DNA of 64,000 nt from Marsupella aquatica (Eukaryota; Plantae; Marchantiophyta), in the NCBI GenBank assembly GCA_973895155.1, contig OZ316891.1:964143-1028142 (forward strand), given 5' to 3'. The notes under the pieces were generated by a model. That model was not told the DNA's origin and did not search any database. It saw only the letters and a program-made list of their open reading frames with translations. This document shows, one piece after another, positions 25,426-52,369 of this stretch (the first letter of the stretch is position 1; every line of letters starts with the position of its first letter). The translations under genes and the position numbers were made by a program.

Positions 25426-25572
25426 AAATGCCTAAATTGTACCTTAAATGCTAAATATATTTTACTTTCTATGCAGTCTGCTAAATTGTAGAGTCTATCT
25501 AAATGCCTTTGTACCTTAAATGCTAAATATATTTTACTTTCTGTGTAGTCTGCTAAATTGTAGAGTCTATCT
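25426..25572 (+). repeat. ~72-bp tandem duplication just upstream of the PHD ORF
   Basis: TGTACCTTAAATGCTAAATATATTTTACTTTCT.TG.AGTCTGCTAAATTGTAGAGTCTATCT occurs twice. Confidence 0.9.
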
Positions 25573-25583
25573 CATGCGCAGGC

Positions 25584-27729: not shown

Positions 27730-28160
27730 GGAGTAGTAGCATCAGTTTGGACACAAGTTTTTTTGTATAAATCAGATCATTGAAATAAATGTGATCTTTG
27801 AACTAATGTACCTTGTTATGGTTGGTGGCAGTTGGGCTTATTTTACTGTTGGCGGATTGTTGTTTCCTGCTGCCTGGGGGTGTCACTGTAAACGTACATG
27901 CAAAGGCGGTACATTTGAGGACAGCGGAGGAGGTGGTGACACCCTCCAACATTTAGGAATTTTGTGTCATTCACTTGACAATAGGTACACTACTTGCGAA
28001 CCTGTTTTTTTCTTTTGGGGTGGTTTAGGGTGTGAGAATTTAGTACACGTTATGTTAACTCTTTTGGCAGATACAGTCAGGGATATATGGAACACAAATA
28101 CCACCATTAGGCATCCTTGTTCACTGCTGTCCATGACTGCAGAGCTCCCAGCCTGTTACA

Positions 28161-31100
28161 ATGCACCCTGGTCACCACCCTCCCCAGACCCAGCCCAGGG
28201 CACAGGCACTGCCTTTGCATCATCCCACAAGGATATCACGCCATGATAATAAGCTTTGGCAGCGTGAAAGGTTACGAACCAGACTTTCAGGAGCCAGTAG
28301 GATGAGATGTCCTTGTGCAATCTGCCAAGGATCCCGTACCAGGGGTCTGAATGAGGTTTGGCGGCATATTGCGGTTCATGGAAGAGATCCACGACATCGA
28401 GTTTGGAATGATCCTGCAGAGGAAGATTCTTCCGACGAGGAGTGGAGGTTAGAATTTGATGCTGCCAATGCTGCAAGACGGGCAAGTGAGGTTCTGCCTG
28501 GTGCATTTGAAAATGTTGTAGCTGGTCTCTGTGGGTTGTTAGCTCTCCAACGGGATGGTGCTCAGGCAACACCACGTGACAAAGGAATTCATGTGGAAGA
28601 GATGGTGAGAGACATCTTCCAAGACTTGGATGCATTTCATGATGGGCTGGACAACGAAGAGGATACAGCTGCAGATGCAAGTGTGCCCCCTGTCGAAGAG
28701 CCTCTTGATGAGTTTGAGATAGGGCAGGAAACCCCTGGGCATGATGGGATGTTTGGCTCTCCCCTGCAAATACAGGAAGGCAGGAAGTTTTTGTACCCCG
28801 GTAGCAAATGTTCTAAACTGGGATTTGTCATCATGTTCCTGAACATTTGCGGCAACCACAATGTCCCCAACGTTTTGGTTTCTGAGTTGTTGGCATTCTT
28901 GCGAACAACTGTGCTACCAGATGGTAATATTTTGCCCAAGAACATGTACGAGGCAAAAAGATGCATATCTAATCTTGGATTGAACTATGATTCGATCCAT
29001 GCCTGTCCTGATGGGCATGTTCTTTTCAGAAAGGAGTATAAAGAATCGTTGACATGCCCTAAGTGTGGGAAGCACAGGTATCGGAACTCAAGAAAGTCTA
29101 TGGTTCCCGCCAAGGTACTTCGTCATTTTCCACACATTCCCAGACTTCAGCGGATGTTCAGAAGCCGTGCCATCTCGGAGATGATGACTTGGGCAACTGA
29201 CAAGAAAAGTGATGATGGGCTACAACGACATGTTGCAGATTCAAGGCAATGGAAACTCATAGATGAGATGTATCCCGAATTTGCTGCTGAGCTGAGGAAT
29301 GTCAGACTTGGGCTGTCATTGGATGGGGTAAACCCATTTGGAGACAAGAACAACAAATTTTCGTGCTGGCCTGTAACTATTTTGAATTATAACCTTCCTC
29401 CTTGGATGACTACAAAGCGATTTTTTGTTCTGATGGTCCTAGTGATACCAGGGCCAGACAGTGTTGTATCTGCCAACATAGATGTGTTTCTGGCTCCCCT
29501 AGTGGAGGAATTGAGAAAGCTTTGGGAGGAAGGAGTTCTCACATATGATGTCCTACAGAGGCTTGGGAGGTTAAACCCATTCATCCTTAGAGCCATTGTC
29601 ATTCTGACTATAGCTACTACCCAGCCCATGGGATGATATCAGGCCAAACAACAAAAGGATATTGTGCTTGTACTATCTGTGGGCGTAATGTCACCAGTGA
29701 GTACTCCAGAGCCCTGCAAAAAGTGATATACATGGGCCATCGTCGTTTTCTGAAGGCAGATCACCCTTACAAAGAAAGACAGGCACTGATTGCACACTTT
29801 GGCAATGAGATTGAGCAACGTGGACCCCCGGCACAAGTGACCAAAGAGGAGATCAGGCAGTGGGGAGCACTGAGGGATGACTATATCAAACGAGGGGGCA
29901 GGGAAGATGGAGTGAGTGATCCAATAAAGCGATATGGTGTAAAAAGACTGAGCATATTGGACTTGGAGCTCAAGTACTGGAGGGTAAGCCTCTTGGAGTT
30001 GATGTTAATTGGGATACATGTTTTGGTTCAGAGCATGTGCATTCATTTCGAAGAGAGAGACTAAACTTGAGGCATTTCCTGACGCTTTTGCATTGCAACG
30101 ATGCAGGAGTTTGAGCCAAGCAAACATAACATTGATGTTATGCACATTGAAAAGAATATTTGTGAGAGTCTACTCAGATTCTTGTGTGGAGAGAAAGACA
30201 CTGGTTCAGTGAGATTGGATCTTGAACAGAGGGGAATGAAACCCCATCTTTGGTTGAGGCCACATGCCCACAGAGCTGATGTGCTCTTGAAGTACCAAGC
30301 GCCCTATGTTCTGACAGACACAGAGTGGGAACTATTTGTGCAGAGGTTGAGTTCTTTGAAGGTTCCTTCAAACTATGGCAGTGCTTTCAAGAAGCATATC
30401 ATGACTAGAAAGCTTGGTAGTATGAAAAGCCATGACTACCATATGTTGATGCAACAGGTGTTGCCTTTATGTCTGACGGGCCTGTTGCAGAAGCCTGTTC
30501 GTACTGTGATCATGCGACTCAGTGATGTGTTTCGTCGTATTTGTGTGAAGGTTTGGGATGAAACACACTTCCCACAACTGACAGAAGATGTCGCTCAGGT
30601 GCTGTGTGACCTGGAGATTTATTTTCCTCCCGCATTTTTTGATGTCATGACCCACCTACTTGTCCATGTTGTGGAAGAGCTACACCAATTTGGGCCTGTG
30701 AGTGCTCGTTGGTTGTACCCTTTGGAACGGTACATGAAGCTACTCAAAGGTCACGTGAGAACATATTACAAACCTGAAGCAAGCATGGCTAAAGGTTACA
30801 TCAAGGATGAGACTCTGGGATTTCTGACCGAATACATAGCACAATATGAGCATGTGAAGACCAGGGTGTGGAATTCTGATGAGGAGGAAGGGGTGATAGG
30901 TGAAGTACTGGAAGGGGCTGCAACCACAAAGAACCTGACCATATCTATGAGAGACTTGGCACATGACTTTGTATTGCACAACACTGTGGTGATGGAACCC
31001 TGGATACAGTGAGTGCATACATGTGCTATAATCCAGTTCATGAGCTTAAATGTTGTGTTCGTGTGGTTTTCTCCTTCAGCCTGTTCATGTTTACCCAAGC

Positions 31101-31891
31101 TAATGCTGTGTGGTTGTTCGTTTAGGGAGTATGAGTCATTGAAGGCGGCCCATCCCACTGCAGGAACAACTTTTCCAGGTTTCATGGAGTGGATCAGAGT
31201 GGCAATTAGAGAGCATCACGAGACCCACCCAGACATGGATGCAGATGTTTACCTACTGTCTAATGCCCCTAGCCTGAAAGTGAAGACTTACAAACGGATG
31301 AGAGCATATGGGAATCACTTCCGAGTGAAGGATGGTGACAGTGCCTATAGGGTGACGAATGACTGCGGGCTCATCACTGTATTTGAGCAACAGAGCCACA
31401 ATCACGACAGGGCCTGGATGGAGATGGGATATGTGGGAGAATTAGTTGACATATGGGCTCTGGACTATGGGGCGGTGTCCAGTCCTGTGATTCTTATGAA
31501 AGGTTCATGGGTGCGGCAGGATTGGCTTGGTAACAGGGCTACCATGAAGAGAGACAACGACGGTTTCTTGCTGGCCAATTTCAGAGGGAAATTGCCCGAA
31601 TGGTCTGAGCCATTTGTGTTTCCTAGTCAGGTGGAGCAAGCTTTCTTCCTGGATGTGGAAGACTCCCCAGGTTGGCGTGTAGTGTGTCATAAACAGGCCA
31701 GGCAACGTCGGATGGAAGGATCAAACCTTGAGTTTCATTTACACTCTCATAGTGCCTTTGATCGTCGGCGTTCAGACCAAGTGCCTGTAGTTCATGATAG
31801 CCGGGACTTCATTCCTGTGACAAGGGTAGATGCATTTGCTGAAGGAGGCGAATTCAGAGATGCAGATGCCAACAGTGTGCCTGTGCCATGA
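28161..31891 (+). pseudogene. tnpD: CACTA TnpD transposase (Transposase_21, DUF4218, DUF4216), frameshifted near 29612; introns ~29984-30107 and 31009-31125
   Basis: Motifs MRCPCAIC, IHACPDGHVLFRKEY, RNVRLGLSLDGVNPFG, YNLPPW, IDVMHIEKNICES, MKSHDYH, PPAFFDVMTHLLVH, RWLYPLERYM, PEASMAKGY and EPFVFPSQVEQAFF. The TI-DYPA motif is split by a frameshift. Confidence 0.93.
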
Positions 31892-32046
31892 GTAATGTGA
31901 ATTGTTTGCATGGACATTAGTGAGGGGAAGGATGTGTAATAAAGTAATTCTGAAGCAACACAGATGTATGGATGGATGCCTGGTGATTGTGGTTGCATTG
32001 TGTTATACGGGGTGACCATAGATGACATGTTTTTGTGGTCCAGTAG

Positions 32047-35000
32047 GATGGAATAGAGTGACACGGAGATGTGTGAGTATGAAAGGAAAGCTATGGAACA
32101 ACGAGCATACATGAAAGCCAAAATCGCAGAACTGGATCTGGAAAAGGATGTGGCTGAATTGTAAGGGAACGATTCTCAACTACACCCCTCCGCTGAGTTT
32201 GTGTGACATGAATAGTTCAATGTGGCACTGAAATTGTGACTATATTCTCATATTGGAATGTCGCAGAGCCACAGCATTTTCAAAGAAACAAAAGGAGTAC
32301 GCAAGAAGGGTGACCAGCACTATCTCTGGGCCTGTGCGTCGGAGTGACAGGTTGAGCAAGAAGGTCGTACCTACAATGGCAGAATGTGGAGATGACATTG
32401 ATGCTGCACAGGTGGGTGCAGACACTAGACAAGAAGATGCAGATGATGAGTATTTTCCAGAGGAAATGGATGAGGATGGGGGTTATGAAGATGAATACAT
32501 TGCAGAGCAGCCCCAAAAGAAACAGGTAAGTAGTTTTCCCAACAAGGTTTTGAGTTACTCTTGTTTAGAGGTTTCATATGTTCAGTACTACACATATGTA
32601 CCTTGCTTAGTTCCTGACATTGTAGTTGGTGATGTGATGCAGCGTCCTGCCAGTTCTGTTTTGCCTTTGAAGCCTGTGCATGCACCATACCAGCAGGGGG
32701 GCTGACCTCTGATCAAGGTTGGCGAGGTGGTAGTAGTGGTAGATCCCAGGCTGGTGCCCAATACTATGGCAGGGGGCAAGCTCTAGGTTATGCCCGTGGT
32801 AGAGGCAGAGCAGGTCCAAACCCACAATCTCGTGGGTATGGACGTCCACCTCAACCATGGGGATGTGAGTATATATCTATATGCCAGTTCTTTGTGAAGG
32901 CATGGCACTCCTGAATTTCAGACTGCATATCAATTTTTGACATTGTTTGGGATGTATTGGATTCAGACAACATGAAATTCTGTCCACCTGCCATTGCATG
33001 CAGATTCTGCCCAACCTGATTGGGCAAATGCTAATAATGATCAGTTCCAATGTCCACAAGGATAGACATGGGTTGAACCAGGTTGGGAGGATGGTGGTGG
33101 GTCGTGGAATGAACAAGGTTGGGAAGGTGGTGAAGGTAATTGGCAGGGATATCAAAATTCAGTACCTACAAACGCTGGAAGAGGGGCAGGTAATGTCTGA
33201 TCTTGTCAGCAATGGAAGAACTCATTATATGTGAGTCCATTCACGTGGGGGGGACTCTGCACATGTATAATGATAGAAAATGTATGTGTGCAGGTTGGAC
33301 AGTCGAACCATCGACTCAAGTATTCACTAATGCCCCTATGCAGATGCAGCACGGAAGGGGGACAGGTATGTCGGTGAATGTTCAGTTGTTTTCCTACAGT
33401 TTGTACTTAGTTTTCAGTACATATGTTTGCACACACATACCTAGAAAGTGACATCATCCGGCCCCTGTACTAGGCTGGACAGGTGGTCCAGGGTCGCAAC
33501 AATTTCAGAGTGCAGTCCCTGCACAGGCATCTACAGGCAGAGCTACAGGTATGTATGTTTGAAGAATTTTTCTTGAAGTGAAGCATTGAATGTTGCCGTC
33601 ATCCATTCTGCTATATGTAGTTGTCAAGCATGAATGGCATTGTATTTTCCCAGGTGGCTTCAGAACCCCAGGTAGGGTGAATGAAGGGGTGGCCAATACA
33701 ACGCCCAGTACTACCGAGAGCAGTGCACGAGGGGAGGTGACAAAGAAAGGGAACGTAAAGTTGAATGAGAGACAATGGGTGGATGCTGAGTGTCCTTGCA
33801 AGAACCGATGGCATGCTGATTTGAAAGCTGAAGTATTGCGTTGGTTAGATGTGAGTGTTATTAATTTTAAAAAACAGCATCCAAAAGATTGGAAGACTGT
33901 ATGTGAAAATGTTGCTGCCAAATGGAATTATATGGGCAGTGATGATGGCGTGGACATAGGTTGCCTAGAGAGTACAGCAGGTAAAATCATCAAGCAAGAG
34001 AGGTGGAGAATGCATAAGGCTTGGAAGGAAGGTGGGGAGAAGCCAGATATGCCTCCACCAGCCAGTTGTGATGATAAAGTGTGGGCAAGGTTAGTAGCTT
34101 ATTTTGTAACAGATGCTTCAAAAAAGAAGAGTTCACAGATGACCGAGGCCAGGTTGAGTGTTCAGAACCCTAATCTGACAGGAAGGACCGGCACTGCACC
34201 GACAGCTAAACGTTTGGTAAGAATGAATGGCCCAGCTATGTAATTTATGCTACACTATGTACTGTTTTTTAGTGTAAACCCATACATGTAAACTTTGTTT
34301 TTTAGTGTACGTTCCCTGAATATTGATCGATAACTTGTGTTTGCCATGCATGTGCAGAAAGCCCAATTGGGGCAAAGCCCTTCAAAAGAAGAGTTGAGGG
34401 CTGAAATTGTGAACACCCGGGCTCAAGAGGGTGCATCTGAATCCTCCAAGCATGTAAGTTATATGAGTTCTGATTGGTAATTGAATGACCTGCGTTGAAT
34501 TTCAGGTGTACACTGTGTGCATATATTGCCCAACATTTCATATGGAGTGATTGAACCTATACCCCTGTGTCATGTAGGGAGGTGGATCTCACTTACAGAG
34601 ATAAGTGGTCATTTGAAGGCTGTCAAAACATGTCTTCCAGAGATCAATGAACGTTTGAATTCATTGACTGACTTGTTCCATGTGAACTTCAAGACATTAA
34701 TGGAAGCTGTTGTGTCGGTGAGAGATAAAATTGATTCCAATTCTGCAGGAGTTCCACCATCACCACTTGAGGTGGCAAAGTCGATGCACTCTTCTGGCAT
34801 GCCAACGACATGTAGGCTTGAAGGTAAGGCCTTTACAACTGTGTGGGATATGATTATTAAATGTATAGTTTGAATTGACATTGTTTGTTGAATGTGTTAT
34901 TTTCAGTAACATATATTGTGGTTGTTGTGTCCATAGAGAATAAGACAGGTGCTACAGAGAAGAAGTATGAGAACCTGGCAAATACTCGCTGTAATTTAGA

Positions 35001-35733
35001 GGCAACAAAGTTGCAGTCTGTACAAGCAACTTGTTTGACAGAGGGCAGTCAACCATGTTTGGATGAGGATGACATTGGCAAGGGAGTGGATGATATCAAT
35101 GTTGGGGCAAATGAGGATATCAGCAAGCATGACAATGATACCATTGAGCCAGATTCATGCTATGTAGATCTTGACTCCATTGCAGAGATAAATGATTTGC
35201 AGAATGTATCATTCTCAATGACAGGTGTGCCTCTTGTTGAGATAAATCCAACCAAAAAGTTAGTTGGTATGACACTCCCAGGTGATGAACCTGCTACTGT
35301 GACAGTCCTAACAGAGGAACCTATTGAGCCTAGCTTCACTACTATGAAGAGAGGAAGCATGCGCACATGAAGCAAGTCTGCTGGTGGGAGCAGAGCCACG
35401 TCAAAGGTTTCATACAAACCTCCAAGAACAGTGATGGCAGAAAGATCTAAGGTGGAAGTGGGGAAAGCACCTAATGCTGAGGGACAAAGTGGCTTGTTAG
35501 CTGTTGATGAGAGTGGAACACGAGTAGGATTTGGCAGAGTGCAAGTTGGTTCCACAACGTTCCATGGCAAGAGGATTCCCCCAGGTTATTCAGTAGTGTT
35601 AGTCACATTACTAGTGAAACCTAAAGCTGTCCTTCCCATTCCAAACACAAATGATGATCCTCCTCAAAAGACACTTGGAGATGCTGCAGGTTCTTTGGTA
35701 TTATGGCCAAGCAAGTTCATAGAGGATCCATAA
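32047..35733 (+). pseudogene. tnpA: CACTA TnpA-like multi-exon gene with in-frame stops
   Basis: N-terminal CEYERKAMEQRAYMKAKIAELDL, a Transposase_24-like segment (PPASCDDKVWARLVAYF...KKSSQMTEAR...GRTG) and a C-terminal FHGKRIPPGYSVVLV...LPIPN...TLGDAAGSLVLWP. A TGA at 35368-35370 splits one frame. Exon boundaries are only approximate. Confidence 0.75.
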
Positions 35734-38700
35734 CAATGTCATGCCATTATTTGTTTGTAGTGTGAGTCATGTTATGTAGATTTTAGATGTCAAGAAGCAG
35801 TACAAGAATCATGTCCTCTTGGAGATTCATAGTATCATGCATGTGCTTTCAGTTATCTCATCCTACAGTCATCAATTATGAGTTCCTGTTTTGTCTGAAT
35901 TACATTGATCACATTGTAAACTATTCCATTGGAATTCAAATGATCTTCATTTTTTAGCAAGATTGTGATTGTGTTTAATTCTTATGAATGTTTTATGTAG
36001 GATCTGCTTATATGATGCTTTGTTTCATGTGGATGTCATTCATGCTATGTTCATTTCTTGTATTCAATGTGTTATATTTCTAAAGTTAGAACATCAGGTT
36101 TCTATGTATTGTAATGTCGAGTGCTCTCTCTCCTTATGAACTGTCCCTCTGTGTTCATTAGTCATGGTTATAACTTGCATGTGAACCTTATTAGTTATAA
36201 ACATGAGTATATAGAGTCCCAAATGGTTCTGTTGTGTGACGCGGGCCAGGGTCTCCATTGGTCTCTCTTGTGACACTAAATAGTCACACGCTAGTCGTTG
36301 TTGAATGCGGGTAAGTCATGTATGTGACTTACGATGTGACTCGCTGAAGTCATATTGCAGTCACGTCGAAACAAGGCTAGACTCCACAATAAAGTCACAG
36401 ATCAGTCACAAATGGGTATCAAGCAAGTTGCAAAGCCCAGTATCAATAGTGACTTCCATTTTTTGGTCTCAACTTTTGCAACTCCAAGGGTCACAGCGTG
36501 GGTCAAGTCACGTTGAGTCACAATGAAGTCACATGAGCCAAAATGAGTCACATATTGCGGTCTCAGTTCACCTCGGATTCTTCTAGTGGAGGTAAGGGCA
36601 AGATATCAAGGAGAGGGCAAGATGTCGAGGTGAGGGTAAGATTTTGAGGCAATGGTAAGATTTTGAGGCGAGACAAACATGGTTGTGCATTGCAAACATG
36701 TAATTCAGGCAAACATGTAATTTTAGTAAGGTAAAGAACTACTCATTAAAAGCTGGGGTTTTTAGGTGGATCAAACTCAAATATTGGATTTTCCATAATC
36801 CTTTCTTGCCCATTTCATGTGAAAAGTGTTGTCAATGCGGAGACCTTGTTCAATATAGCACAATCATGAAATTATGTAATCAAGTAATGTAATTCAAGTG
36901 AACGCAAAAATATGGGATAAGGCGCAAATGGGTAATGAGAGTACATGGGCAAGAGTTAGGTAAGAAATCCTTATTGTTAATGATACAAAAGATGGAACAA
37001 AAGACCGGAAAAAAGATGCAAATGGGGGCAAAGAGCTGGTCTCCAGACTTGGGAAAGGATTAGGGCAAAAGAAAGACTAATAGAGATGAGGGGGCATGTC
37101 AAGCAATACATGTCTTGTGGAGAAAAGATGTTGGGAGCTTGATATTCTTGGTCTTCATTAAAAATGCATTTTTTGAAAAGATTTTCAAAGAGAATGTTGG
37201 AGATATAGATGGAATAACAAATTTGGGACCGATCTTCTATACAACAAAAAACAAAAATATAATCAAAACATGTAAAAAATAGTGGACTTTGCTTTTGCAT
37301 TTTTAATTTATTTTGGAAGTAGATGTTGTTTTGTTGTGAAAACTATATTGTTGGGGAGAGCAAGGATGTGGGAGGGTGAGAGCTAGTGCAAGAGAGATGA
37401 TGGCCCCAGGTGCTTTGATACTATTGGGAGGGGAATATTTTATTTTTTTCTCTCCCATTTTTTCCCATTTTTACACTCCTATGCAACACCATTACTCCCT
37501 TTTTTTTACATTGGCACCATTAAATAAACAGAAAAAATGCACAAAACATGATGTCGGACCTATCGAGAAGGGTGACCACCCTTCTCATTTTTCATGATCA
37601 ATTTTTTTTCTAAGGCATGTAAAACCCGATACAAATTGTGCATTCCAGAAAAATAGTCATCCATGATTAGGAGGAATGCAAAGATCGATACGGGTATCGA
37701 CCTTTGCACTTGTAAATTCTTTGGTTATCAGAAATTTACAGAAATGGTGAAACTGTGCATAACCGCGCAGTAGGCTCTAACTATGGTTAAGTTTAACTAG
37801 GGTTAAGCTAGAAATTAACCATAGCTACCTCCAAAAGTATAAATATGACTGCCCGCTCATGGAAAGAAGTTTCATTTTTTCAAGTCCTCTTTCACAATCA
37901 AGCTCTCACCCAACCCAAAGAAAACCTCCTCTCCATACAGATGCGCATTCTGGTCTTAAGAGTAAGCTTCCACTTTCCAAAGCAAACTGTGATACTCGTA
38001 TCATAATCAGCTTTGTAGAAAGCAACTTGCGATACTTGTATCATAAGTTGCATTCAAACCTAAGTTTCAAACCCTCAACAATACAGGTATCGCTTGGTGC
38101 ATTGAGCCAACTCAATTAGTCTTATGGTGCAGGAGTGAAAATACTTCAATCATGGTTTAGATTCTGTCTCTTGAAGATTGTAAAGCCGTTTGCTGCTCAT
38201 CTCGCAGTTCTTCATATTATGTTGGGGCCCTTATTTTCTCTTGGGTAGCTGTTGGTCGGATCCGAAAGCCAATAGCGATACTTGTATCACTCTTTGGATT
38301 GAGTAGTGTAGATTTAGGACGGACTGCACTGCAAAGATCATTGGACTGGGTCACTCGTGACCTCTAAGGTGGACCTGACAAAACCCCACCTAAACAAACA
38401 CAAATACTCTGTTCCGTTCGCTTACAAGCAAAAATGTGCCCAACAAAAGTTGGGCTCGACAATCTTTTGAGTGCCCAAAGAGTGACGGCCTCGTGTCTAT
38501 ATATATCCTCTCCCATACAATGTTTCCCATTTTTTCTTGTCTTTGTGAGAGCTCGTGTGAGAGATTTTGGAAAGGAGCATTGTTTGGCTAGAGAGGAGAC
38601 TGAGGACGTGGTGTGGCCTGGCTGATTCAAAAAGAAATAGTTTTACCCTGTAGGCAGCACCAGAACAAGTTCTAGAGGCGGCGCAAATGAAGACAGTGCG

Positions 38701-39764
38701 AACCATGGTTTGTACTGTGAAAAGGATTTGGTCTGCTTCTTGAGTCATTTCCCTTAGTTGGTTTTGCACAAATAGTTTTTGAGGCATTCCGTGTGGCTTG
38801 TGAAAGACATATTAGATAGTCGTATTGCTTCGAGTAGGAGTCTTTGTGTTTTGTCATCTAAAGAGGAATCGGCGGATGGATTGGAAAGTGTTGGCCCAAT
38901 CCGAAAGCAAATTGCGGTGCTTGTATCTCTCTTGGGATTGAGTCATGTTGTTCTCAGAATTAAGCTGAATTCAGTAATCCCAGTTAAAACATCATAAATT
39001 AACTAGAGACTCCATTAGAGCCTGCAATCTTGTATCTGTAGCCCGATCGTGGATTCATGGATCCTCTTGGGGGTTTGTAAGGTGTTGGCTTGTTAAGAAA
39101 GCAAAGCTTGTTCTCTCGTTCTTCTCTCTTTGCTCAATGGCAACATTCCCAAAGAGCGGAGGAAGACTTGCAAGTCTGAAGGACTTAGAATTCATCGCTG
39201 TCGATTTGGCCATTCCCACAATAACAATCATGACATAGTACTTGCTCAAATTGATGCAGCCAAAGGGCGACGAAGGAGAGGACAGTGAGTTGATCGTAGT
39301 CACCACCGGCAGAGAAGGAGTTGCAGCTTGTCATGTCTGTCAATCTATCTTTCCTTTTGTTCCAATTGTTTTGTAAGTTGCTCTTTTGCATTGATGCGGG
39401 CATTGGCGATTCTTCTGCGATTTTGAGTTTTGAGAAGCAGATTAAGTGATCAAATTGATAGTTTACATTGATTGCCAGTATCGTCGGCCTTTCTTCATTT
39501 TTTGAGCTTCCTGAGCTTCAGATTTGACTCACCGGCACTACATGTCATTGTGCAGATGGACAACGATAGCCTTGACCCTTGCTGGATTAGAACCACATGA
39601 GAATCGATAGCAGCTCCCAACAGACGCCCCTGCTCAAGGTTCTTGGACCCAGTAGAAAGCAACTTGGATGCCGTATTCAGAAGAAAGCAAAGCACGATAC
39701 TTGTATCGCTCGTGGGATTGATCAAGCAGTGTAGATCTCAAATTTGATCTGCCAAAGGAAAACA

Positions 39765-42700
39765 ATGGAAGGAAGTGCAAGGACAGGGTCTGCTGAGATC
39801 GAGAACCTCATGACAACTTTGTGTAATGTGATTTGGATGACAGAAGATATTTGTGATGAACAAAAGTTTGTGAGGAGACCTTGGTACTTTCGGGATACTC
39901 GAATGATGTCCAAGGAAGCAGCTGACTGGGAGACACCCGTTCTTTGGGTTCAAGTGAAGAAAACAGAGAAGATTACACTCTCCTTTGGTCCAGTAATTGG
40001 GGTTGCCGCATGTGACTTTAAGAAGGGTCATGGGAAGGAAAAATCTGTCGCTATTGGATTGAGCTTCCTCACAATGTGTGGAAGCAAGGGTTTTGTGGCC
40101 CTTGTCATGGACATGGATTTGTATGATCTCTCAACATTAGACAAATTTCCCGAAGACCCTATTGTGAAGGAAGTTGCAAGTACAATTGAGATGGAGATCT
40201 TCAAGCCTGAGTGGGTTGCTAATGTTGTGGATGATTCGAGTCCTTTGATGCTGCCGTTTGTCCAAAAAGAGTATAAGAGACTCGTGGGTGAAGAGTTTAA
40301 ACCCACACGAAGGATCAAAGTAAGGAAGCCAACCATTAGCGGGAGTGGTGCATCTTTAGTTGCAAAAGGAGTTGATTGTGCTAGTGGGAGCGGGGGACAT
40401 GGGAAAGGGAATTCCCAAGTAGAAGCTACAATGAGAGTGATTCTAGGTGAAGCACCTCAATCTGTAGAGGCAAGCCCAGGCGCTACTGCAAGTGTTGGTC
40501 GTGGTCGAGGTCGTGGTCGTGGAAGAGGTCATGGAAGGGGAGTTGTGGATGAATTGGTACCTGTCGAGGCAGAGGTTCCATCGCCATCAACTTCACTTGC
40601 AAAGAAGAAGAGGACTGGTTGGATTGGAGGCACAGGAGTAGCTCTAGCTGCAGATTCAAGTGGTGCAATAAGCACTCCAGCTGTGTCAATGCATCAATCC
40701 AAAGAACGATTACCCCTTACCTCAGGTCCAACCTCAGCTGTCGTTAGCATTCCCCTGGTAAGTTTATTTGTCTAGAAAAAATGAATGTTGGGAGCGATAC
40801 TTGTATCGCGCATTGCATTGAAATAATGAAAATTATGGTTTGCATTTTGAATTCTTCTTAAAATTCATTGCAAGCCATGTTATTTTTCAGGGAGATGAGG
40901 AAGAAGAGACGCCGTTGGCTTCATTTGAGACAGATGCCATCAAGGCTGAACTTGCAAAGCTCATGCTTGAACGCAGAGTCCAGAGGACCAGTGTGCTTCC
41001 ACATGTCAATAATCTCATTTTTGAAGATGAGGGTGAGAATTCAACTTTAGTTAGACCTGTAGATCGGCTACATGTAGAGAACATCAAAATGTTGCTCATG
41101 AAAAACCCTTCCAACTTCACGGCTCCATTTGTTGTTGTAGTTGATCCAACAGATTGTCCCACAATTCATGAGTGGGACATTACTAAATCTAGGGTATGGA
41201 AGTATCGAGTAATTGGCGGTAATCATGGAGCTCGTGCAAAGGCTGAACTTTTCAAAATGTATGGAAAGCAAGTGTACGGTGAGATTGAGGCATGGGTTTA
41301 CTCTGGTCTAACGAGACATGAGATCAGGATGCTGGCTTTCCAGCATAACTACGACCAGGAGTACCGTAAAACCATGACATTGATTGGCAAAGTTCGTGCC
41401 TGTCACAATATTTTCATGGAAATGAATGTGGGGTCAACTAAAGAGGTGCGAGAAGCTTGTTGTAAGGAATGTATGCTTGATTACACTCCAGGTGTTCGTG
41501 ACTCAATGGCCAAACATGACCCTACATTTCAGATTGCCTTTCGATCTGGGGAGATTTGGGAGCTCCAAGATAAATTTTTCTCTATGTGGCAAAAGTTTGA
41601 GATCCTTGGTCAAACAAAGCCAATCGTGGCCAAGCAGCCGTCAGCAACATCAAAAGGTAAATCAAAAGCTAAACCTAAACCGCTGAGTGCAAGTGAAATC
41701 AAAATGAACAAGCTCTCTGGGCATTTCAATTTGAGGGTCTTCAGAGCTCTCCAGGGGCTTTCCAATCAGGAGCATGTGAAGCGACTCCTAAACAGAGTAA
41801 TTGGAAAGAAAATCACTCTAGAACAAATGTTCAAAGAAGGTGAGACACTTAAGAAGTTGGCAAAGGTAAAGAAATTGTTCCTGCAGATTTCTGGTCAAAA
41901 AGATTGGGCAACATGCCGGGAAATGTTTCCCCAGGAAACTGATGTGAAAGTCCTTTCAACTTGGTGCGAAAAGCTCATAGAAGCAGTAAGCACAATGTCC
42001 TTATGGCCTTTTGTTTTCAGTTATATATATTCAAAGCAAACATTTGAGATATTGAATGCAGGTAGTGTTACTTGTATCACTGGTGGCATTCAAAATTTGT
42101 GTTTGGAAATCTTACAAAGAGTTTTGTTTAATGTGCAGTTCAAAATCAGTTCAAAGAGGAAGAAAAAAGTCATTTCTGGAAATGAATTTGATGAGGGCGT
42201 GGAGGTCGAGATTCCTTCATGCGACATCCCCTACGTCTTCAAGAACTATGTTCTTGAAGCAATTGAAAAACACAATCGGAGACTGAATATCTCATCAATT
42301 GCTACAGCTTCATCTCAACATCAATGGAAGAATGCAAATGGAGACGCATTCTCATATTCTATTCATGTTGGAGATATTCGGAAACTAGAAACCTTTCTAG
42401 AGCCAAAACATTTCACTTTGGCAATTGCAGACATCCCGTACGGTTTCAATGCCCCTGGTTCTCAGTTTGACGAGGAACCTTTCACTGAACAGGATGTAAA
42501 TGAGATGGTTACTAATTTTGCTAAAATCACCACCTCTCCATTGTGGAGGTTTGTTGTGATCCATTCCTTGCAGCAGACAAATAGCGTTATGAGCGCACTT
42601 GAGAAGGTTTGCAATTGCGGAGTTGAGGCCGGTATATATGAGAAGACAAACATCCATGAGCACCCTTCTGGGCCAAGGCTAGCTTGGGCCTTTGAGAACT

Positions 42701-43119
42701 GGTCAATTGGTTATTACAGTGAGGATGGAGTCCGAAAGAAGGAGATGTACAATTTTGCTCCTGATGAGTCCAGGGTGAACATTGTGAAAGTTCCCTGTGT
42801 TACTACAAAGTCTATGAGTCCATTAGGGTTTATTGTAAACCCTTACCAAAAACCAATTGCATTGGGTGATTGGTTTGTTAATCATTTCAGTGAGAAAGGG
42901 GACTGGGTGGCAGACCTTTGTTGTGGAACCGGGTCAACATTGGTGGTTGCACTTCTCAACTCTCGGAATGGGTGTGCTGTTGACAAAGGTGAGACTCAGG
43001 TAGAATTTTTGAGGAGTCGGATTATGACATTGGAATCTGTTTGGACTCTATACGATGAAGCACAAGTGTCCGGTGAAGGTGGCCAGGGACAAGAAGTTCA
43101 GCCTCCGGTTGGTGGGTAG
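39765..43119 (+). CDS. ParB/Srx-like domain + beta-class DNA amino-methyltransferase (N6-A/N4-C) fusion; exons 39765-40757 and 40891-43119, with a probable in-frame intron at 41986-42138
   Basis: ParB-like VRPVDRLHVENIK...PFVVVV...YRVIGGNHGARA...EIRMLAFQHN. The MTase region has GDIRKL..FTLAIADIPYG (motif IV), NPYQKPIAL and GDWVADLCCGTGSTLVVAL...GCAVDK (motif I). Catalytic-before-SAM order indicates beta class. The phase-0 GT-AG intron joins the two ORFs. An RG repeat lies in the linker. Confidence 0.88.
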
Positions 43120-43419
43120 TTGGGAGTCATTGGTACTAGCATTTATGTGGATACTGATGACTAGGAGGAGCCTGAAGAAAATGAGCCAAACATTGAAGAA
43201 AAGCTACCTAGAACACCGGACGACGGGGAACTCAATGATATGTTGTTAGATTAGATGTGTGCAATAAAACTATTGAGGATTTATCAAGGCTTTCTATTAA
43301 TGATTGAGAACCTTGATAAACATATCTCTATTTGAGGTTTGAAATGCAATTGGCGATACATGTATCGGATGTAGCATTCCCAACAACATTCCTACCTATC
43401 TGCACTTTTCCTACTCTAA

Positions 43420-46400
43420 CTAGTCACAGTCATCTGCATCAATGATTTCCGTGTCAAGCATTGCTGCTTGGATGATTCGCTTTGTTTGTACTGGAAGCGT
43501 GTTGTTTGAGAGCAGTGCAAAATTATATGCATAAATTGCAGTTTCTGAGAGGCACAATGTGTCCTCAAGTAACTTGTTAGAGGATGCAACTTTTTCAGGG
43601 TAATATTGACCTTCCATAGCAGACCCTTCTCGAGAATCCATTGTATACCATACAATTTTGATGTTCTCTGGAACATCTTGTACTTTGGATAGAATATCTA
43701 TGACTTTTGCCATCCAAAATGGTCTGCTGTTTGGATCCCTATATGCAGCCACGCAAATCATTGCATATTTAGTGTTCACTTCAAGATCTTTGAAGTCTCC
43801 CTCGACTGCTTTCTTCTTCCTTGTTCCAGAGTACATGACTGTTGTTGCACCTGCAATTTTATCTAGCAAGGCTGGCTCTATTTGTGGGGGAAGTGCATTT
43901 CTTGGAGTCTCTACTCCAATATTTGATTTTGGCCACGTCCAATCAAAAACCCATTGTCCTGCCTTCAAGTGGTGTTTAATCACTTCTTTCTGGTTGTCAA
44001 AGAAACGGAGCCACCAAAGTTTATCCTCATCATCAAAGTAATTGAATCCATCTTCAATTGATTTGCGATATTTCTCCAGGACTGCAACATGGTTGCAGAG
44101 AAGATGCTCGTCTCCATTGCCTCCGTCATCATGTTCATCATTCTCCACTGTTGCTCCGGTTGTAGATTTCAATGCCATTTGTGCAGCAACCCACATGGTA
44201 GATGTGGGGATGTATCTAAGGAACTCCACTGCTTCTCCCCAACTTTGAGTGCTAGAAAGATGCTTTGCGTGAAACAAAGTTGAAGTTCCTCCATTCTCTC
44301 CTACAACCCTCTTCATCCTAAATTGCTTTTGACCACTAATACAATGTAGAGGACACAAAACATGCCCAATACCTCCCATGTCATTGGGTTGGTCTTTATC
44401 CGACACAAACTTCTTGAAATCAGCAACCTCTTCAACAAAGATTATCTCAGCCTTTGGATTGTACGAATCCTTGAGAATGTCTGCAAGACTATCCACCCGA
44501 AAAGCTTTTTGCTTATTTAATTTTGAGGAGAACTTGCTGAACATTTGGTCAATCTGATCATGGGTATGTCCAACCAAAAGAAAACCAACTTTGATCTTTT
44601 GGAAAACCCTCATCTCAACAAGCATATTCAAATATGCCATGAGAAATTTATTTTTATTTTCTCGAGGGGTATTATCAAGTTGTAGATACAACACTAGAGG
44701 GAGTGGACCTTTCCAACTATTTAAAATATGTTGGATCACATGCACTGTCAAGTTGGTGTCATTGTGAATGTTTGGATAATTCAAAAACACTTTTGATGTC
44801 AAATGTCCATTGAACACCAAACAACCCACCACATGTACCGGAATAAAGTACTTCTCGTCCATGTTTTTGGGGCACCTAGTGAAATGTGGCAACTCAGTCT
44901 TTTTTTGATCCATACCATCAATGCAGATCCTCAAATATTTTTCTGGACTCTTATAGCACTTGCTTCGGTGCTTTGCTAATTTCTCCCTCTCAACTCCTTG
45001 TGCTTTCCGATGTTGGTTCAAAAGTGTTGAATATTTTCCTGTCAAATGAACATCAATGTTTTTGTCAATAATAACCGCATCACCAAACCAAACAAGTAAA
45101 TAATGTAGTACTTAACATCAATCCTTTACTTATTTAAAGGTAGACACAACTTACGTTTTTCTGCTTCAAGTACTGCTTTGTCGCGAAGTGCTTTGAACTC
45201 TGTGCAAGGACCGCATGTGGAGAAGCGACTCTTTTTTGGAATACGCACCCTGGGGAACTCTTTGTTCCAGATGCGAACAAACCAAGAATATGTGATCTCG
45301 GTTTCCTTCCGCACCATAGTATCAGTCTTGAAAGCATCAAATACTTCAGCTTTCGTCCAATTGTCTGGTAAGTGGAAGATGTCCTTGTTTGGAAGACTTT
45401 CAACATTTGACATGAAAAACTCATTCAACCATTGAACTAGTGAAAGATGAGTAACCGATTTTTCCTTGCAAAATGTGTCATTTTGAATACGAGAAAACGT
45501 ATTCCTTGAGATTCTCTGCAGCCGATTATTTCCAACGGAAAATAATTTCTTGAAACCTTCTCGAAAAAAAGATCTCCCGTCAACAATGTAACCGGTTGGA
45601 CCACCGTGCCCACTTTTCAAACAGCCCCTTAGAAGTATGTTCTTCTCGGTCGATGATAAGCCATAATAGAAGGTCCGGTGTTTTGTCACTAAATCTAGAC
45701 CAAAATATCTCAAACACAAATTATCACAACATGGGTACTTAAAAACTTCTTTCATTTTTTTTGTCTTTAAATTTTGATTTGTAACATTATCTTTCCTCAC
45801 AAGCTTGTCTCTCACTTTCTTGCTAAGCTCCTTTTGTTTCTCCATACTGTGAAATCCATGGAGTGAATTTTCACTCTCTTGTCTCTCTGCAACTTCCAGA
45901 ATAGAGCCATTAGTATCTTTTGAGCTACTATCATCTGAAGATAGAGTGGGATTTCTCGGATCACTAAAGAGATGACTATAGCTACTCTCGCCCTCATTTG
46001 TTTCCAAACATTCTGATACAACTTGTGCAATGGCTTGCAACTGTCTATTTTCCTCAACATCTTCCTCCTCACTTGACTCATCAGAAAACACTATTGGACT
46101 TCTTGGTTCTCTGTACATAATTTGGACTCCGCTAAAACTAGTGAGGCCTCGTCTAGCAACTTGAAGACGTCTAATTGGCTGTCTAGAAACACTCCTAGTT
46201 GCAGAAGTGGGTCTAGCGGTCATCAATGGTGTGTCTTGATTGTTCCCCAAACTTGTATTGTGTACACGAGCGGCTGCCATTGGTCCATTGATTGGAGAAG
46301 CATCGAATAATCGTTGTACACATCTCCCCACTGCAATTTGAGATTGCGTAGATTCTGGACTTTGTAGTCCGTTGTCTTTGCTGTTGCTGGGAACCAGTTC

Positions 46401-46961
46401 TCTTTGACGCAATGCAGACGGCGATCCACGTATCGTTGTGTGTATTGTACCTTGCGTTCTCACGTCTGTCCCAAGAAATATCCTTCGCTGCACCTGTGGC
46501 AAAACTGATTCCCTCAAAGGCAATGCAAATGGCGATACACGTATCGCTGTTTGCATTCGACCTTCTCTTCTCTCCTCTGGCACCTGTTGGAAACTTGAAG
46601 CGTCAATTGGAGATCCCAATCTCGTTGCCAATACGCGTATCGTCTTCTTGATTCCTTCACCATACCCAGGGATAGACGGTCTAAATCGACGTCTAAAACC
46701 TAAACCTTGGATAGAAAGCTTTTGCATCCGAGGGGAGGGAATGTTTAGGAGCCGACGTTTATCAGGTTTACTAGGTGACACATAGTAAGCCCCAGGTTCT
46801 GGTTCAGAACTTCCATCAGAATCAGAGTCCGATATTTTGGGTACACTCTGTTGAGAAACTGGGAGTAATTTGCGAATATGATTTGGCAAACATCGACGAC
46901 CATGAGGACCACCATTGGGGGAGGACTCAACTGAACTGGAGGGCGACCACTCTTTAGACAT
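43420..46961 (-). CDS. Sola1-like/DUF7869-type DDD transposase, intact; exons 46961-45155 and 45038-43420 (~1141 aa)
   Basis: Motifs CIDGMDQKKTELPHF, LYLQLDNTPRENKNKFLMAYL and GFLLVGHTHDQIDQMFS. Upstream there are Cys motifs CCDNLCL and FSTCGPC and a long disordered N-terminus. The intron rebuilds an R codon in frame. The 4-bp TSD fits Sola. Confidence 0.85.
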
Positions 46962-48844
46962 GGCTAACGTATAACTAACTCTATACTGGTGGGCATTCCT
47001 GTCACAAAATGCTCTTATATGCTCAAAAAACTCAAATAGACGCATAACTTTGTGAAACAAAATGGTGCAAAAAACTTAGTCGGCGTTGATGTATTTATAG
47101 TTTTTGGTGACCCTGAGCCACGTGGCTACTTCTGATTGGTCAGCCGCTACACGACAAAATAGATTGGGTGATTAAAAAAGGTTCAAATTAGTGTTTTAAC
47201 GACAAAATTAATGTACATGTTAAGTGTTTCCTCCGGGGTGGATGCAATTTTTATTCTATTTGGGATATTGTACTGTGGGTTGCTTTAATCAACCATTGAG
47301 ACAATTTGGTTCTAGATGCGATACAAGTATCGCTTTTTGCATTTTGGGGTGATTTTTTCAAATTGGTCCTGTAAAAGGTGCACATATTGTGCTTTGGAGT
47401 TATGTACCATAGTTTTGCTGATTCACAATCACTTTTCACGATGGTTAGGCGGAATGGTTACCATGATTTTGTCACTTAGTTTACTTTCTGGTTAAAAGTA
47501 GATCAACTGCGTTGAACTGTGTAGTAAATTTTGGGCAACTATGATGTAACTTTTCAAATTGTTGATAGTAAATTTTTTGAAAGGAGAGGTTGAGCTACTT
47601 TTGGAGTATATTCTCAAATGATGAATGTGGTTTGCGATACGAGTATCGCTAGTTGCTTTCCTTTATGTGTTTGGGTTTGGAAGCAAAACTATTATGTGTA
47701 CAAGTTGACGGAAAATAAGGATTTTCCATGTTGGAAACAAAGTTGAACGTTGTCAACAACAAACAGTACATTTTGGAAGTTTAAATATATATAATGAGGT
47801 AGTCTGTGGGCATTGCTCACCCCTTCAATGAAATCCCATCTACGATACAAAAATGTAACTACTGGGATATTGCGGAATTTTGGATGGCTATTTGTGTCAT
47901 TTCAACAAAATTGGCGAGAATGAAAAACACCCTTCTCTATGTGCGGAAATACTTCTCAATTGGTCCGAAATCATGTTACAACTAAATATAGAGAAGAAAA
48001 AGAAGAAAAAGAAGAAGAAAATTAACACATTTTCCTTCCTTCTAGAGTCTCACAGGCTCTGTAAAAATCCAAAATTTCTCATGCCCCAAAAGATTCTCCC
48101 ATCATTCGTGTGTACTTTTATATTTAAGATGATATCACATAAGTATCTTCTAATATACGATGTCAGATCAGTATCGTCTACTATACTTTGTATTTTAGTA
48201 TTAAAATGAGCATATCATTTGACATACCTGGTCAATCAATCCAAGGGTACAAAACAATCTTTGAAAAAATCTGACGGCTCAGGTTTGTTCCCTCCATTTC
48301 TGAATTTGTAAGCGGACGAAAGAGCTTTTTGGCGGCATTGCATATTATAGAAGTAGATAAGCATTGGAAAGGTTTTAACTAATGAAGGTACACACATGGG
48401 AAGGAGAAACTTTGGGGTTGACAAACTTTTTGGATTTTTTCATAGAGTATAATCATGAAACTTTAAAAAGAAGCAAAATGGATTAATTTTTCTTTTAACC
48501 CCGTTTTTTTTCTTCTCTTTATTTAATTTTGCATTTTTTTAGTATATTTAATGGTGCCAAAGGTAAGAAAGAGGGGGAGGAATGGAGTGGCGAGGGAGTG
48601 AAGAAATAGGAATTAAAGGGGAAGAGAAAAATTAAAATGCTCCCCACCCAATACCATTGTGCGACCACACCTTGACCCTGTAAAGCCATCACCTCTCTTG
48701 CACTCCCTCTCACCCTCCCACATGCTTGCTCTCCTCAACAACATAGCTATCACAACAATGACAACATGGTCGCAATAACATTTGAGATGTTTAAACAATT
48801 TTTTTGCCCTACTTGCATTTCTTTGCATTGTTTACATTTTTTTG

Positions 48845-49446
48845 GCGGATGACATTTCTTTGTCTTGCCTCAACATTTTTGCCTCACAACAACATCTTTG
48901 CCACACTTTAACATCAGTCTAAACTTGCCTCAACATCTTTGCCTCACCTCAACAATTTTGCCTCACCTCAACAATATTTCCTTGCCTTGACATGGCTGCA
49001 ATGACATATCACATGCCTGAATGAATGTATACCTTGCAAAGCCTATATTTTCTTGCTTCACCTTGACTTCTTTGTCTTGCTTCAACATCTTTTTGCATCT
49101 TGACATCTTTTCTTGCTTCAACATTGTTTTTTAACTCAATGTCTTTGCCCTCCTTTGACATCTCTTTTTGGCCTTTTAACATTTTTCCTGCCTGAACATC
49201 TTTTTCCCTGTCTTTTCTCACCTCAATCAATATATTTGTCTTGCCTTGACATCTTTTTCTTTCATCAACATCTTTTCCTCACCTCAAAATCTTTTTCTCT
49301 CCTCAACATCTTTGTCTTAACTTGACATCTTTTTCTCACCTCAACATCTTTTTCTCTCCTCGACATCTTTTTCTCACCTCGACATCTTTTTCTCACCTCG
49401 ATATCTTTTTCTCACCTTAACATCTTCTTCTCACCTCGACATCTTC
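48845..49446 (+). repeat. 19-bp tandem array (ACCTCGACATCTTTTTCTC), reverse complement of the 17598-18190 array
   Basis: Repeated units are visible directly and are most regular at 49320-49446. Confidence 0.9.
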
Positions 49447-49759
49447 TATGCAACTGACGGGCATTGAGCTAGTCTTACTATAATAGTGCATTTTGAAGCC
49501 TACTATTAAGGCCAGGCCTTAGGTCTAAGTGCAGCCTAGCCCGTAACTCCCAATATAAACAAAGCTTTGTAACTCCCAACATAGACAAAATTGATAATGA
49601 GATTCAATATGGTCAAATTTTAGTGGAAGACTTACAAAAGAGACATTGACTCTAATTAAAGATAAAAACTGAAAGTAAGGTGAACCAAAAAAGAGTGGGG
49701 CAAAGACCAACCAGATAACATAATTTTTTTTGTTTGTGCAATAATCGTTTTAGTGTCTG

Positions 49760-49969: not shown

Positions 49970-52369
49970 TCTGCAGGGGCCTGCTATAGTCATAATCTGC
50001 TCTCCTGAAAAGTCTAGCCGGTAACCTCTTTCCGGGCAGGAGTTACATACGCTAGTGCAGGTCTGGGCTGGGGTTATAGAATTTAACCTGCTCCCGGAAT
50101 ATTCAAAGGCGCTTTCGGGCTACCTGTGGTCAACTTCTTTTCATAGTTTTCATAGTCCGGAGGCAAGGTTACAGCCTAGTCACCCTGCCCACACCTACAT
50201 TACCCTATACATAGCGCTTGTGGGTTACAGAGTAAAATATTCCGTGAGCGAAGAGGATTCGTGGGAAGCCAGTGACTCCGTGACACCATGGTCTCCTTCT
50301 TTCTGGGCTTCTTATCACTACAGGCCTGCAAGTCCACCTGTTGTCGACTCGACCGGCAGCGAGGGTTGTTGCAAAATCCACTTGCTCACTCGACCGGCAG
50401 TGAAGATTGCTGCACTGGACAGAGTTTGAATCAAGGTCTGGATCAGTCTCCTTTGCTGGATGTGTGGATCGAACCATTCGACGAGGGTTTCACACAATTG
50501 CCTGAAATTTGACATTTCGGCTGGCTTGCAGATCAGTCTGGGAGCTTACAAAATGAGGTACGTTACATGTCCATAACCATTTGACCACGCTCAACAGAGT
50601 GGACGATGATACTGATTGAGGATGTTACATATCCCTTGTTGTGCTTTTGGCAAAGCTCTCCTTCTTCGAAGTATGTTGACCGGTTTTTGGCTTCATTGCT
50701 TCGTTCGAGATATCCATGGTACTGAAGAAGGGATAAGATGTTCATGAGTGATTTTTGTTCGGAATGCTGCCACTAGCTTTGATTCACTGAGGTACATTCC
50801 TGTTTTCATGGCTTTTGCTTGAATTTATGACACTGGCCATTACTCATCGACTGCCTTCAACGCAACTGACATTTCATAGATTGATGGCACTGGAATCCAC
50901 GCAGGATCGCCGACTGATCGAGGAAGTGCCCTTGAAGTTCCCTTTCAACTTGATAGCTTGGTTCTACTAACTGTGCAACGGAAGGGTACTTCCATGCCGC
51001 AGTCACTTCGGGATCGACTACTGAGGAAGCTCGAAGTGTCAGTTAACAAGCTCGGGCTAGCTGCAAGAGAAGAGCCATCGGAAATGCCAGTGGGAAGTTG
51101 GCAGCTGCCAAATCGTCGGGCACTACTGCCGTCGGAACCACTGCCGTCGGAACCACTGCTTGAGCATAAGATTCCAAGGTTTTCATAAACTCCACGCAAG
51201 TATTCTCTTGACACCCAATTCATTTTGACATTGCTTCTCGTGATATTTCACTGGATAGTTTTAACATTTTGCTTTTGCTATGCAAACGTACTTCAAATCT
51301 CTTCGCATCAGTCAATGATGTGTCCCGAACTAGTGCTCACAGAAGTGAGGCCTACTCGTCAATTCGATGAGGCAGTATCGAATCGTCCTATTCGTAAGTT
51401 TGTCACATTCGCTTGAAGAGAAGCAGATCCGGTCAAAGTGAACGCAGTGAACTGATGTACCTTACTATCAGCTCCAACCTTTTGTCCCTTAAATCTGTTT
51501 CATCTACGGCCTCTAGTTGGACCATGATCTCCGCTTCGCCTGTTTGTAGAGCTTCTCGTTTGTCCTTAGAAAACATATTTTTGCCACAAGAGTTCAACGT
51601 TTCAACGTTAATACTAGGTTCCTCTTATGGGTCTAACAGTCTTTACAAACCCACCGTACTTTAGTTCAGGGGATGGATCTGTCGTGTTTTCGAAGTTGTC
51701 ATCGGCACTTCTAGGAATTCAAGACAATAAAAGATCGTATGTACTTCTCTGTTTTTTGGCGAGCGTCGTGAAAGCCTTATTCCAAATAACCTAATCTACC
51801 GCCCTATATATTGCTTTCCTTCTCAGGATCTTGGGTGGCTCTGTGATGAGAACCAGCAGACATCAGCCGCTTCTCTTACCCTGCCGGTTGGTTTCTTCTT
51901 CCAAAGTTACTATCGTTTACAGAGTATAAACTTTAACTAAATTTGTATTATAATTTAGGTTTAAACCTGCCTCGATAATTATTGACTAAAGAGTAAGCCA
52001 ATTAATTTTTGACTTGTTATTCTCTCTTTCTTTCTCTGTGATTGTTAAATTTGACACTGTAAATGGTAGATTTCAGACAGATTCTTCAACACTTCTTAAG
52101 TTTAGGGCGTTGTTTCGGACACCCGTCACCAGTTTTTTTGTTTTCATGCCTTTGACAGATGAGCTACAGTAGCTAGAAGCTTGTGAACGGTGTTTGGATG
52201 GAGTCCATCTTCGAAAATCAGCAACAGGTATGCAAGGGGTAGATCGTTGATTCCCTTGGCCAGTTCGGAATTATGTGTCGTTTCCTCAGTTGCTCTGCAG
52301 GAGTACTCTCCAAGGAGGCAGAGTAGATAGAAGACACGAGGAAAGTTCCGTTCCAGGACTGTGGCGGAA

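Follow-up and report, generated by a model that had tools for sequence, protein, structure and literature searches.

A 64,000-nt stretch of the genome of the liverwort Marsupella aquatica (contig OZ316891.1, assembly GCA_973895155.1, positions 964,143-1,028,142, forward strand; hereafter the window) contains a likely Sola-like DNA transposon of 10,433 bp which, opposite its transposase, carries a gene fusing an N-terminal domain without known family to a ParB/Noc-like module and a beta-class amino-methyltransferase (MTase). The MTase is a cargo exon of this transposon helper gene and not an ordinary host gene. From motifs and models we propose, with a probability of roughly one half, that the helper of this Sola-like cut-and-paste transposon would write N6-methyladenine (6mA) on the element under the guidance of its ParB-like module. 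The borders and transposase of the element are as follows, in window positions.

37545..47977, no strand: whole terminal inverted repeat (TIR) DNA transposon, likely Sola-like, 10,433 bp; the sole end pair with a target site duplication (TSD) in the ranges tested
37541..37544, plus: left TSD, ACAA, 4 bp
47978..47981, plus: right TSD, ACAA, 4 bp
37545..37570, plus: left TIR, 26 bp, 88% identical to the right end (blastn)
47952..47977, minus: right TIR, 26 bp (blastn)
45155..47045, minus: transposase exon 1 (start codon inferred); spliced model of 1169 aa with no internal stop
45039..45154, minus: transposase intron, 116 nt, GT-AG
43420..45038, minus: transposase exon 2, DUF7869 domain (PF25273, E 1.2e-48)

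Joining the flanks of the element restores a paralogous repeat that is present at 48380-48700, giving an empty site. Moreover, Logan contigs from two runs (X1 and X2) begin at 37545; one X1 contig ends at 47977, whilst one X2 contig stops matching there and continues into other sequence. These contigs, found among 4 runs of 2 studies of which one run may be the window's own source, differ from the window by ~1%. As such slightly divergent contigs start and stop at its borders, the element is probably a member of a young multicopy family. A pair of inverted 19-bp arrays (36586-36681 and 49250-49445) was also considered as element ends and was rejected, being part of Helitron-like repeats.

The transposase lies tail-to-tail with the fusion gene, and its second exon contains three candidate catalytic Asp motifs, DGMDQ, QLDNT and GHTHDQID. 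We take DUF7869 and these motifs to be linked to Sola1. The 4-bp TSD and TIRs of Sola elements were both found (ACAA, 26 bp), and on the TSD and the motifs together the element is likely Sola-like. The target preference given for Sola1 is AWWT (PMC3845634), which ACAA does not fit, though one insertion cannot gauge a preference. Sola1 has been recorded for Physcomitrella (PMC9033089), and a definition of the Sola motifs was not found in the available portions of PMC4455052 or PMC5751038. We compared the window with five related loci (L001-L005). An opposite-strand transposase follows the MTase in three of the five, with matches of 60% (L001), 54% (L003) and 50% (L004); the remaining two end about where the transposase would begin.

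The fusion gene was modelled on the plus strand as three exons encoding 1022 aa.

39765..40757, plus: exon 1 (inferred); conserved ~190-aa domain, then a low-complexity linker with a GR repeat
40758..40890, plus: intron 1, GT-AG, phase 0; contains one of the palindromes described below
40891..41985, plus: exon 2, ParB/Noc-like module; ParB/Srx domain, then a helical region resembling the ParB DNA-binding domain
41986..42138, plus: intron 2, GT-AG, phase 0, 153 nt, stop-free and in frame; contains one palindrome
42139..43119, plus: exon 3, beta-class amino-MTase domain; ends at a premature TAG
42430..42441, plus: motif IV, DIPY (catalytic), which hhalign places on the DPPY of a phage beta-MTase
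42847..42855, plus: QKP motif (YQKP at 42844-42855), near invariant across the family
42913..42939, plus: motif I, DLCCGTGST (S-adenosylmethionine (SAM) binding), in the same open frame as DIPY
43120..43254, plus: acidic C-terminal tail remnant, retained in relatives and severed here by two in-frame TAG stops

Despite its open frame we treat intron 2 as a predicted intron, since its position is kept in 5/5 related loci, where its length differs, and since a related protein (P0058) continues directly from exon 2 sequence into exon 3 with the intron absent. An AG acceptor for intron 1 was found ahead of exon 2 in L002, L003 and L004, and the join of exon 1 to exon 2 is drawn from splice signals. 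The conserved domain of exon 1 (39765-40340) is found in L002 and L004 at 30-32% identity, and neither Pfam nor the PDB gave a match to it below E 0.04.

Exon 3 carries motif IV ahead of motif I, the permuted order of beta-class enzymes, and matches Pfam PF01555 at 33 bits (cut-off 26.7; E 7.9e-08). An AlphaFold (AF2) model built from a 57-row alignment reached a predicted local distance difference test (pLDDT) score of 89.9 and a predicted template modelling (pTM) score of 0.87. Its best structural match is CcrM (Z 23.8, root mean square deviation 2.8, 221 residues aligned), followed by M.BceJIV (Z 22.4), MboIIa (20.9), N4CMT (19.9), PvuII (19.7) and RsrI (19.5). DNA beta-MTases range overall from Z 17.5 to 23.8, and Foldseek gives the identical order. 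MT-A70 types are ~10 Z units below the top (MTA1 13.0, METTL3 12.9). The modelled fold is therefore that of a beta-class amino-MTase, closest to the DNA type. A prediction of the MTase homodimer with SAM scored 0.69, and a control 0.67. At least 90% of the 57 rows, which share 19-70% identity, conserve D98, G102, Q237-K238-P239, D259 and G263. A further DIPY at 42223-42234, upstream of the MTase core, is not conserved among relatives.

Of 175 proteins examined, 115 include motif IV, which starts with D in 109 of them and with S in 1. Deep family members have DPPY and DIPY looks derived. In CcrM the second motif IV residue is among those that hydrogen-bond the target amine, whilst in N4CMT it acts through its main-chain carbonyl (PMC10406627, part consulted). 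As that contact is made by the main chain, Ile may be tolerable at this position and DIPY could be catalytic. On these motifs DNA methylase activity in the family appears quite probable. Given the D-initial motif and the CcrM-like fold, the product of an active enzyme would probably be 6mA and not N4-methylcytosine (4mC).

A sequence-only reading of this DNA had recognised a beta-class amino-MTase with DIPY, QKP and DLCCGTGST, and the motifs in one open frame, the Pfam match and the modelled fold agree with it. Its span, 42345..43050, does hold the MTase core, but this core is part of the third of three exons. The view that a D-initial motif IV points to 6mA without settling the matter still applies, 6mA now being the likelier product. 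Affinity with RNA MTases, which that reading had named as a warning sign, was not found, DNA beta-MTases lying above MT-A70 in Z. The suspicion that the enzyme is transposon-borne is borne out by the TIRs, TSD, empty site, opposite-strand transposase and Logan contig ends. It is not the ordinary plant nuclear gene that was first supposed, but transposon cargo fused to a ParB/Noc-like module.

Exon 2 is modelled with a ParB/Srx N-terminal fold. The top ten Foldseek rows are all Noc, Spo0J and ParB chains (E 1.4e-05 to 1.8e-04, ~290 columns), led by Noc 7ng0 (E 1.4e-05) and Spo0J 6sdk (E 3.4e-05). The HTH_ParB profile matches 5/21 members at E up to 1 (best 7e-04), and the helical region matches Spo0J 152-191 at E 0.098; the Foldseek alignment covers this region at high root mean square deviation. 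The ParB profile also matches 23/150 of the MTase relatives listed, and many of the rest are single-exon fragments. Moreover, tree distances of the ParB and MTase parts correlate (rho 0.59, 16 rows), with 0/5000 permutations as high. No ParA gene was seen in the element. ParB and Noc recognise specific sites and can readily be reprogrammed to others (PMC7333895), and by analogy the module would be a reasonably likely binder of the repeated sites of the element. Separately, an Atlas feature search linked exon 2 (40891-41985) to ascomycete DUF3723 clusters (score 0.95), and DUF3723 proteins may be related.

The candidate binding sites are short dispersed repeats.

37685..47649, no strand: 15 dispersed 16-bp palindromes, GCGAKAC-NN-GTMTCGC, with outer AATRC arms
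Starts: 37685, 37989, 38029, 38078, 38275, 38914, 39694, 40794, 42065, 43353, 46421, 46532, 46628, 47318 and 47634

Allowing up to 3 mismatches there are 18 palindromes in the window, 15 of them inside the element, which makes up 16% of the window; shuffled sequences gave a mean of 2.45. Of the 15, 12 lie outside coding sequence, among them one per intron of the fusion gene. With 2 mismatches or fewer allowed, L001 has 6 copies, L002 16, L003 8 and L005 5. L004 (78-4860) represents a different subfamily, with 0 palindromes and instead 20 copies of an asymmetric core, CCGATCNAAACATCGG (0.03 expected by chance), which retains the AATRC arm on one side only; neither site type is present in the other's loci. 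None of the 55 sites in the five loci falls in approximate coding sequence, although this spans 59-81% of each locus. In all site types seen the AATRC arm stands at a fixed spacing from the core, and the core CG is the best preserved part of both. We read these repeats as a candidate double-stranded protein-binding site that varies by subfamily. The parS sites of ParB and the Noc-binding sites (NBS) are likewise repeated protein-binding sites that change (PMC7333895, part consulted). An RNA hairpin was rejected on the grounds of the 2-nt loop, mismatches at pair 4 in 17/52 sites and the asymmetry of the L004 core. The palindrome had no match in Rfam, and apparent covariation is confounded by relatedness.

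A profile search for the family listed 1018 representatives with an E-value of 0.001 or better, and 141 at 1e-10. The 20 distant members that were looked up include named proteins of Chara braunii (3), Riccia sorocarpa (2), Adiantum nelumboides (2) and Ginkgo biloba (1). The Ginkgo protein (P0080, Gb_37443) reads DIPH at motif IV, and its ParB motif is degenerate. A 56-row tree, whose family rows were chosen by profile and which has long branches, a midpoint root and neither N4CMT nor MpDN4MT1, places the window in a 20-row clade (95/85) that holds all 5 named land-plant rows, sets the Chara rows apart (100/99) and splits the 44 family rows from 12 prokaryotic and viral beta-MTase rows (99/99). 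It identifies no donor. Word-based scans, which detect close relatives only, found 0/38 and 0/115 related stretches in viral contigs and 0/31 in prokaryote genomes. Among 4910 candidates of 861-2455 aa, a search for longer fused forms turned up a single unrelated protein, a weak blank. Direct descent from a phage ParB-MTase fusion was considered and is unsupported, the phage ParB half having failed to align with exon 2. The named members in Chara, Riccia, Adiantum and Ginkgo fit an old family with long residence in streptophytes, not the recent horizontal acquisition first suggested. That the gene is a eukaryotic resident and not contamination stands, on the conserved intron and the lack of a close prokaryotic or viral relative in these scans; from N4CMT and DN4MT1, which that reading had cited, the enzyme differs in motif, this being SPPY and TSPPY there and DIPY here.

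Taken together, these data lead us to suggest the following mechanism. The ParB-like module would bind the 16-bp sites of its own element, and the tethered MTase would then write 6mA on the element. The most speculative part concerns the place and effect of the mark. It may be set within the sites or next to them, the best candidate target being the outer AATRC arm common to all subfamilies seen, and it may keep the element expressed or regulate its transposition. A wider version is more tentative. It is that of an old transposon family of Chara and land plants possessing its own site-guided 6mA writer, in which ParB might load at parS-like sites that coevolve by subfamily, and the mark might denote self and so escape or tune host silencing. 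An intact catalytic motif under strong purifying selection, a site switch between subfamilies, which amounts to a built-in specificity control, and members in Chara, a liverwort, a fern and Ginkgo make the idea testable. Should the enzyme be active, plant transposons would be placing a DNA mark of their own, and 6mA in plants would have a defined source other than the host. If the idea is true, the source is transposon-encoded and sequence-specific, and the family would be a natural library of retargetable methylases.

Several observations weigh against ParB-guided writing of 6mA, and we consider them here with the alternatives on which they bear. To begin with, the five related loci all come from one assembly, and the transposase link, seen at this element and three of those loci, is putative for the Chara, Riccia, Adiantum and Ginkgo members.

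The alternative that survives best, although we consider it unlikely, is that the MTase half has little or no catalytic activity and serves as a DNA-binding scaffold, the whole protein being a structural helper of transposition comparable to the second protein encoded by CACTA or Harbinger elements. DIPY is non-canonical, degenerate variants at motif IV occur in the family (DLPR, DILY and DVWY), and W167, near invariant in relatives, is Y in this copy. The MTase is under strong purifying selection at the family level, with an omega for exon 3 of 0.056 (6 sequences, 323 codons; lnL -4736 against -5259 at a fixed omega of 1 and kappa of 1.3) and for exon 2 of 0.017 (3 sequences). This is far from the dN/dS near 1 that the sequence-only reading had named as evidence against function. 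The estimate is tempered by saturation of dS in 14/15 pairs, the only measurable pair (L003 and L005) giving dN 0.056 and dS 0.82. Moreover, purifying selection is no proof of catalysis and low omega also fits a non-catalytic role. Against a mere scaffold stand the joint retention of the catalytic Asp, QKP and motif I across the 57 rows and a complete, confidently modelled beta-class fold.

Somewhat less likely again is that the enzyme writes 4mC, perhaps at the core CG pairs, and thereby blocks host 5-methylcytosine (5mC) silencing. The N6_N4 domain has switched base repeatedly in evolution (PMC8885841, part consulted) and the top match outscores 4mC enzymes by no more than about 4 Z (N4CMT 19.9, PvuII 19.7), so that base specificity may be open to 4mC. 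Moreover, in both site types conservation is highest at the core CG, and the CpG observed to expected (O/E) ratio of the element, 0.54, exceeds the 0.37 of a neighbouring CACTA element. However, the element is still below its flanks (0.71-0.74), an S-initial motif IV occurs in 1/115 proteins whereas N4CMT and DN4MT1 have SPPY, and three site cores of this copy carry CG decay. Among the 40 best-supported of 209 differences between the window and Logan contigs, 35 fall within the element, and at 21/35 the window copy shows a C-to-T type change, of which 14 affect CG and 4 CHG. With 18/35 in CG or CHG, this copy was not shielded from 5mC-type decay, which also counts against the main reading. In the fusion gene 8/15 of the listed changes alter a residue, and the two TAG stops strip the acidic tail, whilst the MTase core is stop-free. 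Within its family, this copy is probably in decay.

We give still less weight to the idea that the transposase or the exon 1 domain binds the sites, and that the ParB-MTase has no site specificity or acts elsewhere in the host genome. The sites become denser towards the element ends, 3/15 sit within the transposase ORF and the exon 1 domain has no assigned function. The exon 2 model is only moderately confident (pLDDT 72.6, pTM 0.47), and in a VIA comparison sulfiredoxin (Z 9.3), serine kinase SerK (9.1) and pNOB8-like ParB (9.0) were tied. The ParB arginine patch, GERRxRA (PMC7333895, part consulted), is absent; GGNH(G/S/T) or GGGH stands in 26/42 of the profile matches that yielded the motif, and GGNH is found here at 41215-41226, within the ParB/Srx domain. 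This replacement makes a CTP clamp doubtful. However, each intron of the fusion gene and the gap separating the 3′ ends of the two genes also hold sites, well away from the termini, and ParB and Noc are the reprogrammable site-specific binders noted above. Lastly, it is most improbable that the locus is bacterial contamination, an RNA methylase or a domesticated host gene (the lone annotated members from Ginkgo, Riccia, Adiantum and Chara might be the last), in view of the TIRs, TSD, empty site and conserved intron, the absence of a close prokaryotic or viral relative in the scans and the low rank of MT-A70.

Other features were seen elsewhere in the window. A CACTA element (19167-36588) has CACTAGAAG ends, a GAG TSD and Tnp2/DUF4218/DUF4216 and Transposase_24 ORFs, and carries chromatin-reader cargo consisting of NSD-like PHD fingers (25557-26264) and tandem BRCT domains (26812-27729). 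Non-autonomous repeats at 19034-37544 with 47978-48400, at 17570-19030 and at 48400-49474 have 19-bp tandem arrays and hairpin-like 3′ ends, from which we take them to be Helitron-like. Into one of these copies, both the CACTA and the MTase element appear to have been inserted. Dynamin-like gene copies lie at 1004-2267, about 12196-13421 and 55916-58845; two belong to a duplication spaced by 10.3 kb (94-97% identity) and one is inverted. An ORF at 52331-53401 encodes a coiled coil and a C3HC4 RING finger.

Lastly, we compared the helper with known systems. CcrM, M.BceJIV, M.RsrI and M1.MboII share with it the permuted fold (Z 19.5-23.8), the motif order and a D-initial motif IV, but identity to CcrM-type enzymes is 16-21% and they differ from DIPY, the ParB fusion and the introns found here. 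N4CMT of bdelloids and MpDN4MT1 of Marchantia are also bacterial-type beta-class amino-MTases in eukaryotes, and the fold of N4CMT is close (Z 19.9). In the portions of the reports consulted, however, N4CMT has SPPY with a chromodomain and DN4MT1 TSPPY (10.1101/2021.02.12.428880; PMC8885841), as opposed to DIPY with a ParB fusion, and both are described as host enzymes whereas the MTase here is transposon cargo. ParB and Noc with parS and NBS have in common with this system the ParB/Srx domain and repeated 16-bp sites, along with a helical region here that resembles their DNA-binding domain; a difference is the absence of GERRxRA here. A phage ParB-MTase fusion of ParB-terminase loci (L006) has the identical domain order. 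None of the eukaryotic clades described in section 8 of PMC4738411 has this architecture.

The closest parallel is the Ectocarpus element Sola1-1_Ec32 (PMC12477816, part consulted), likewise a large Sola-type element with an accessory gene on the strand opposite the transposase. Its protein of 1104 aa, against 1022 aa here, also joins a ParB-like domain to an MTase, there predicted to make 4mC or 6mA, and its authors propose self-binding and self-modification and cite further similar ParB plus MTase transposon proteins. The ParB-MTase helper design is thus already known from algal transposons. The features that mark Sola1-1_Ec32, a ParB-like domain and an amino-MTase in one protein, encoded opposite the transposase of a large element, were all found in the window. 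That element measures 21.5 kb in an alga against 10.4 kb in a plant, and the likeness is one of layout and domains, by description. We found no report of a ParB-MTase family in land plants in the literature covered, which excludes the supplements and references 50 and 51 of PMC12477816 and the Sola founding paper. In the accounts available to us the ParB-plus-methylase helper so far amounts to a few sentences on algal transposons, with its function not demonstrated there, and the part of PMC12477816 consulted gives Sola1-1_Ec32 without binding sites, a selection test or streptophyte members. New here are the streptophyte range, from Chara to liverwort, fern and Ginkgo, the selection test and the subfamily-specific candidate sites.

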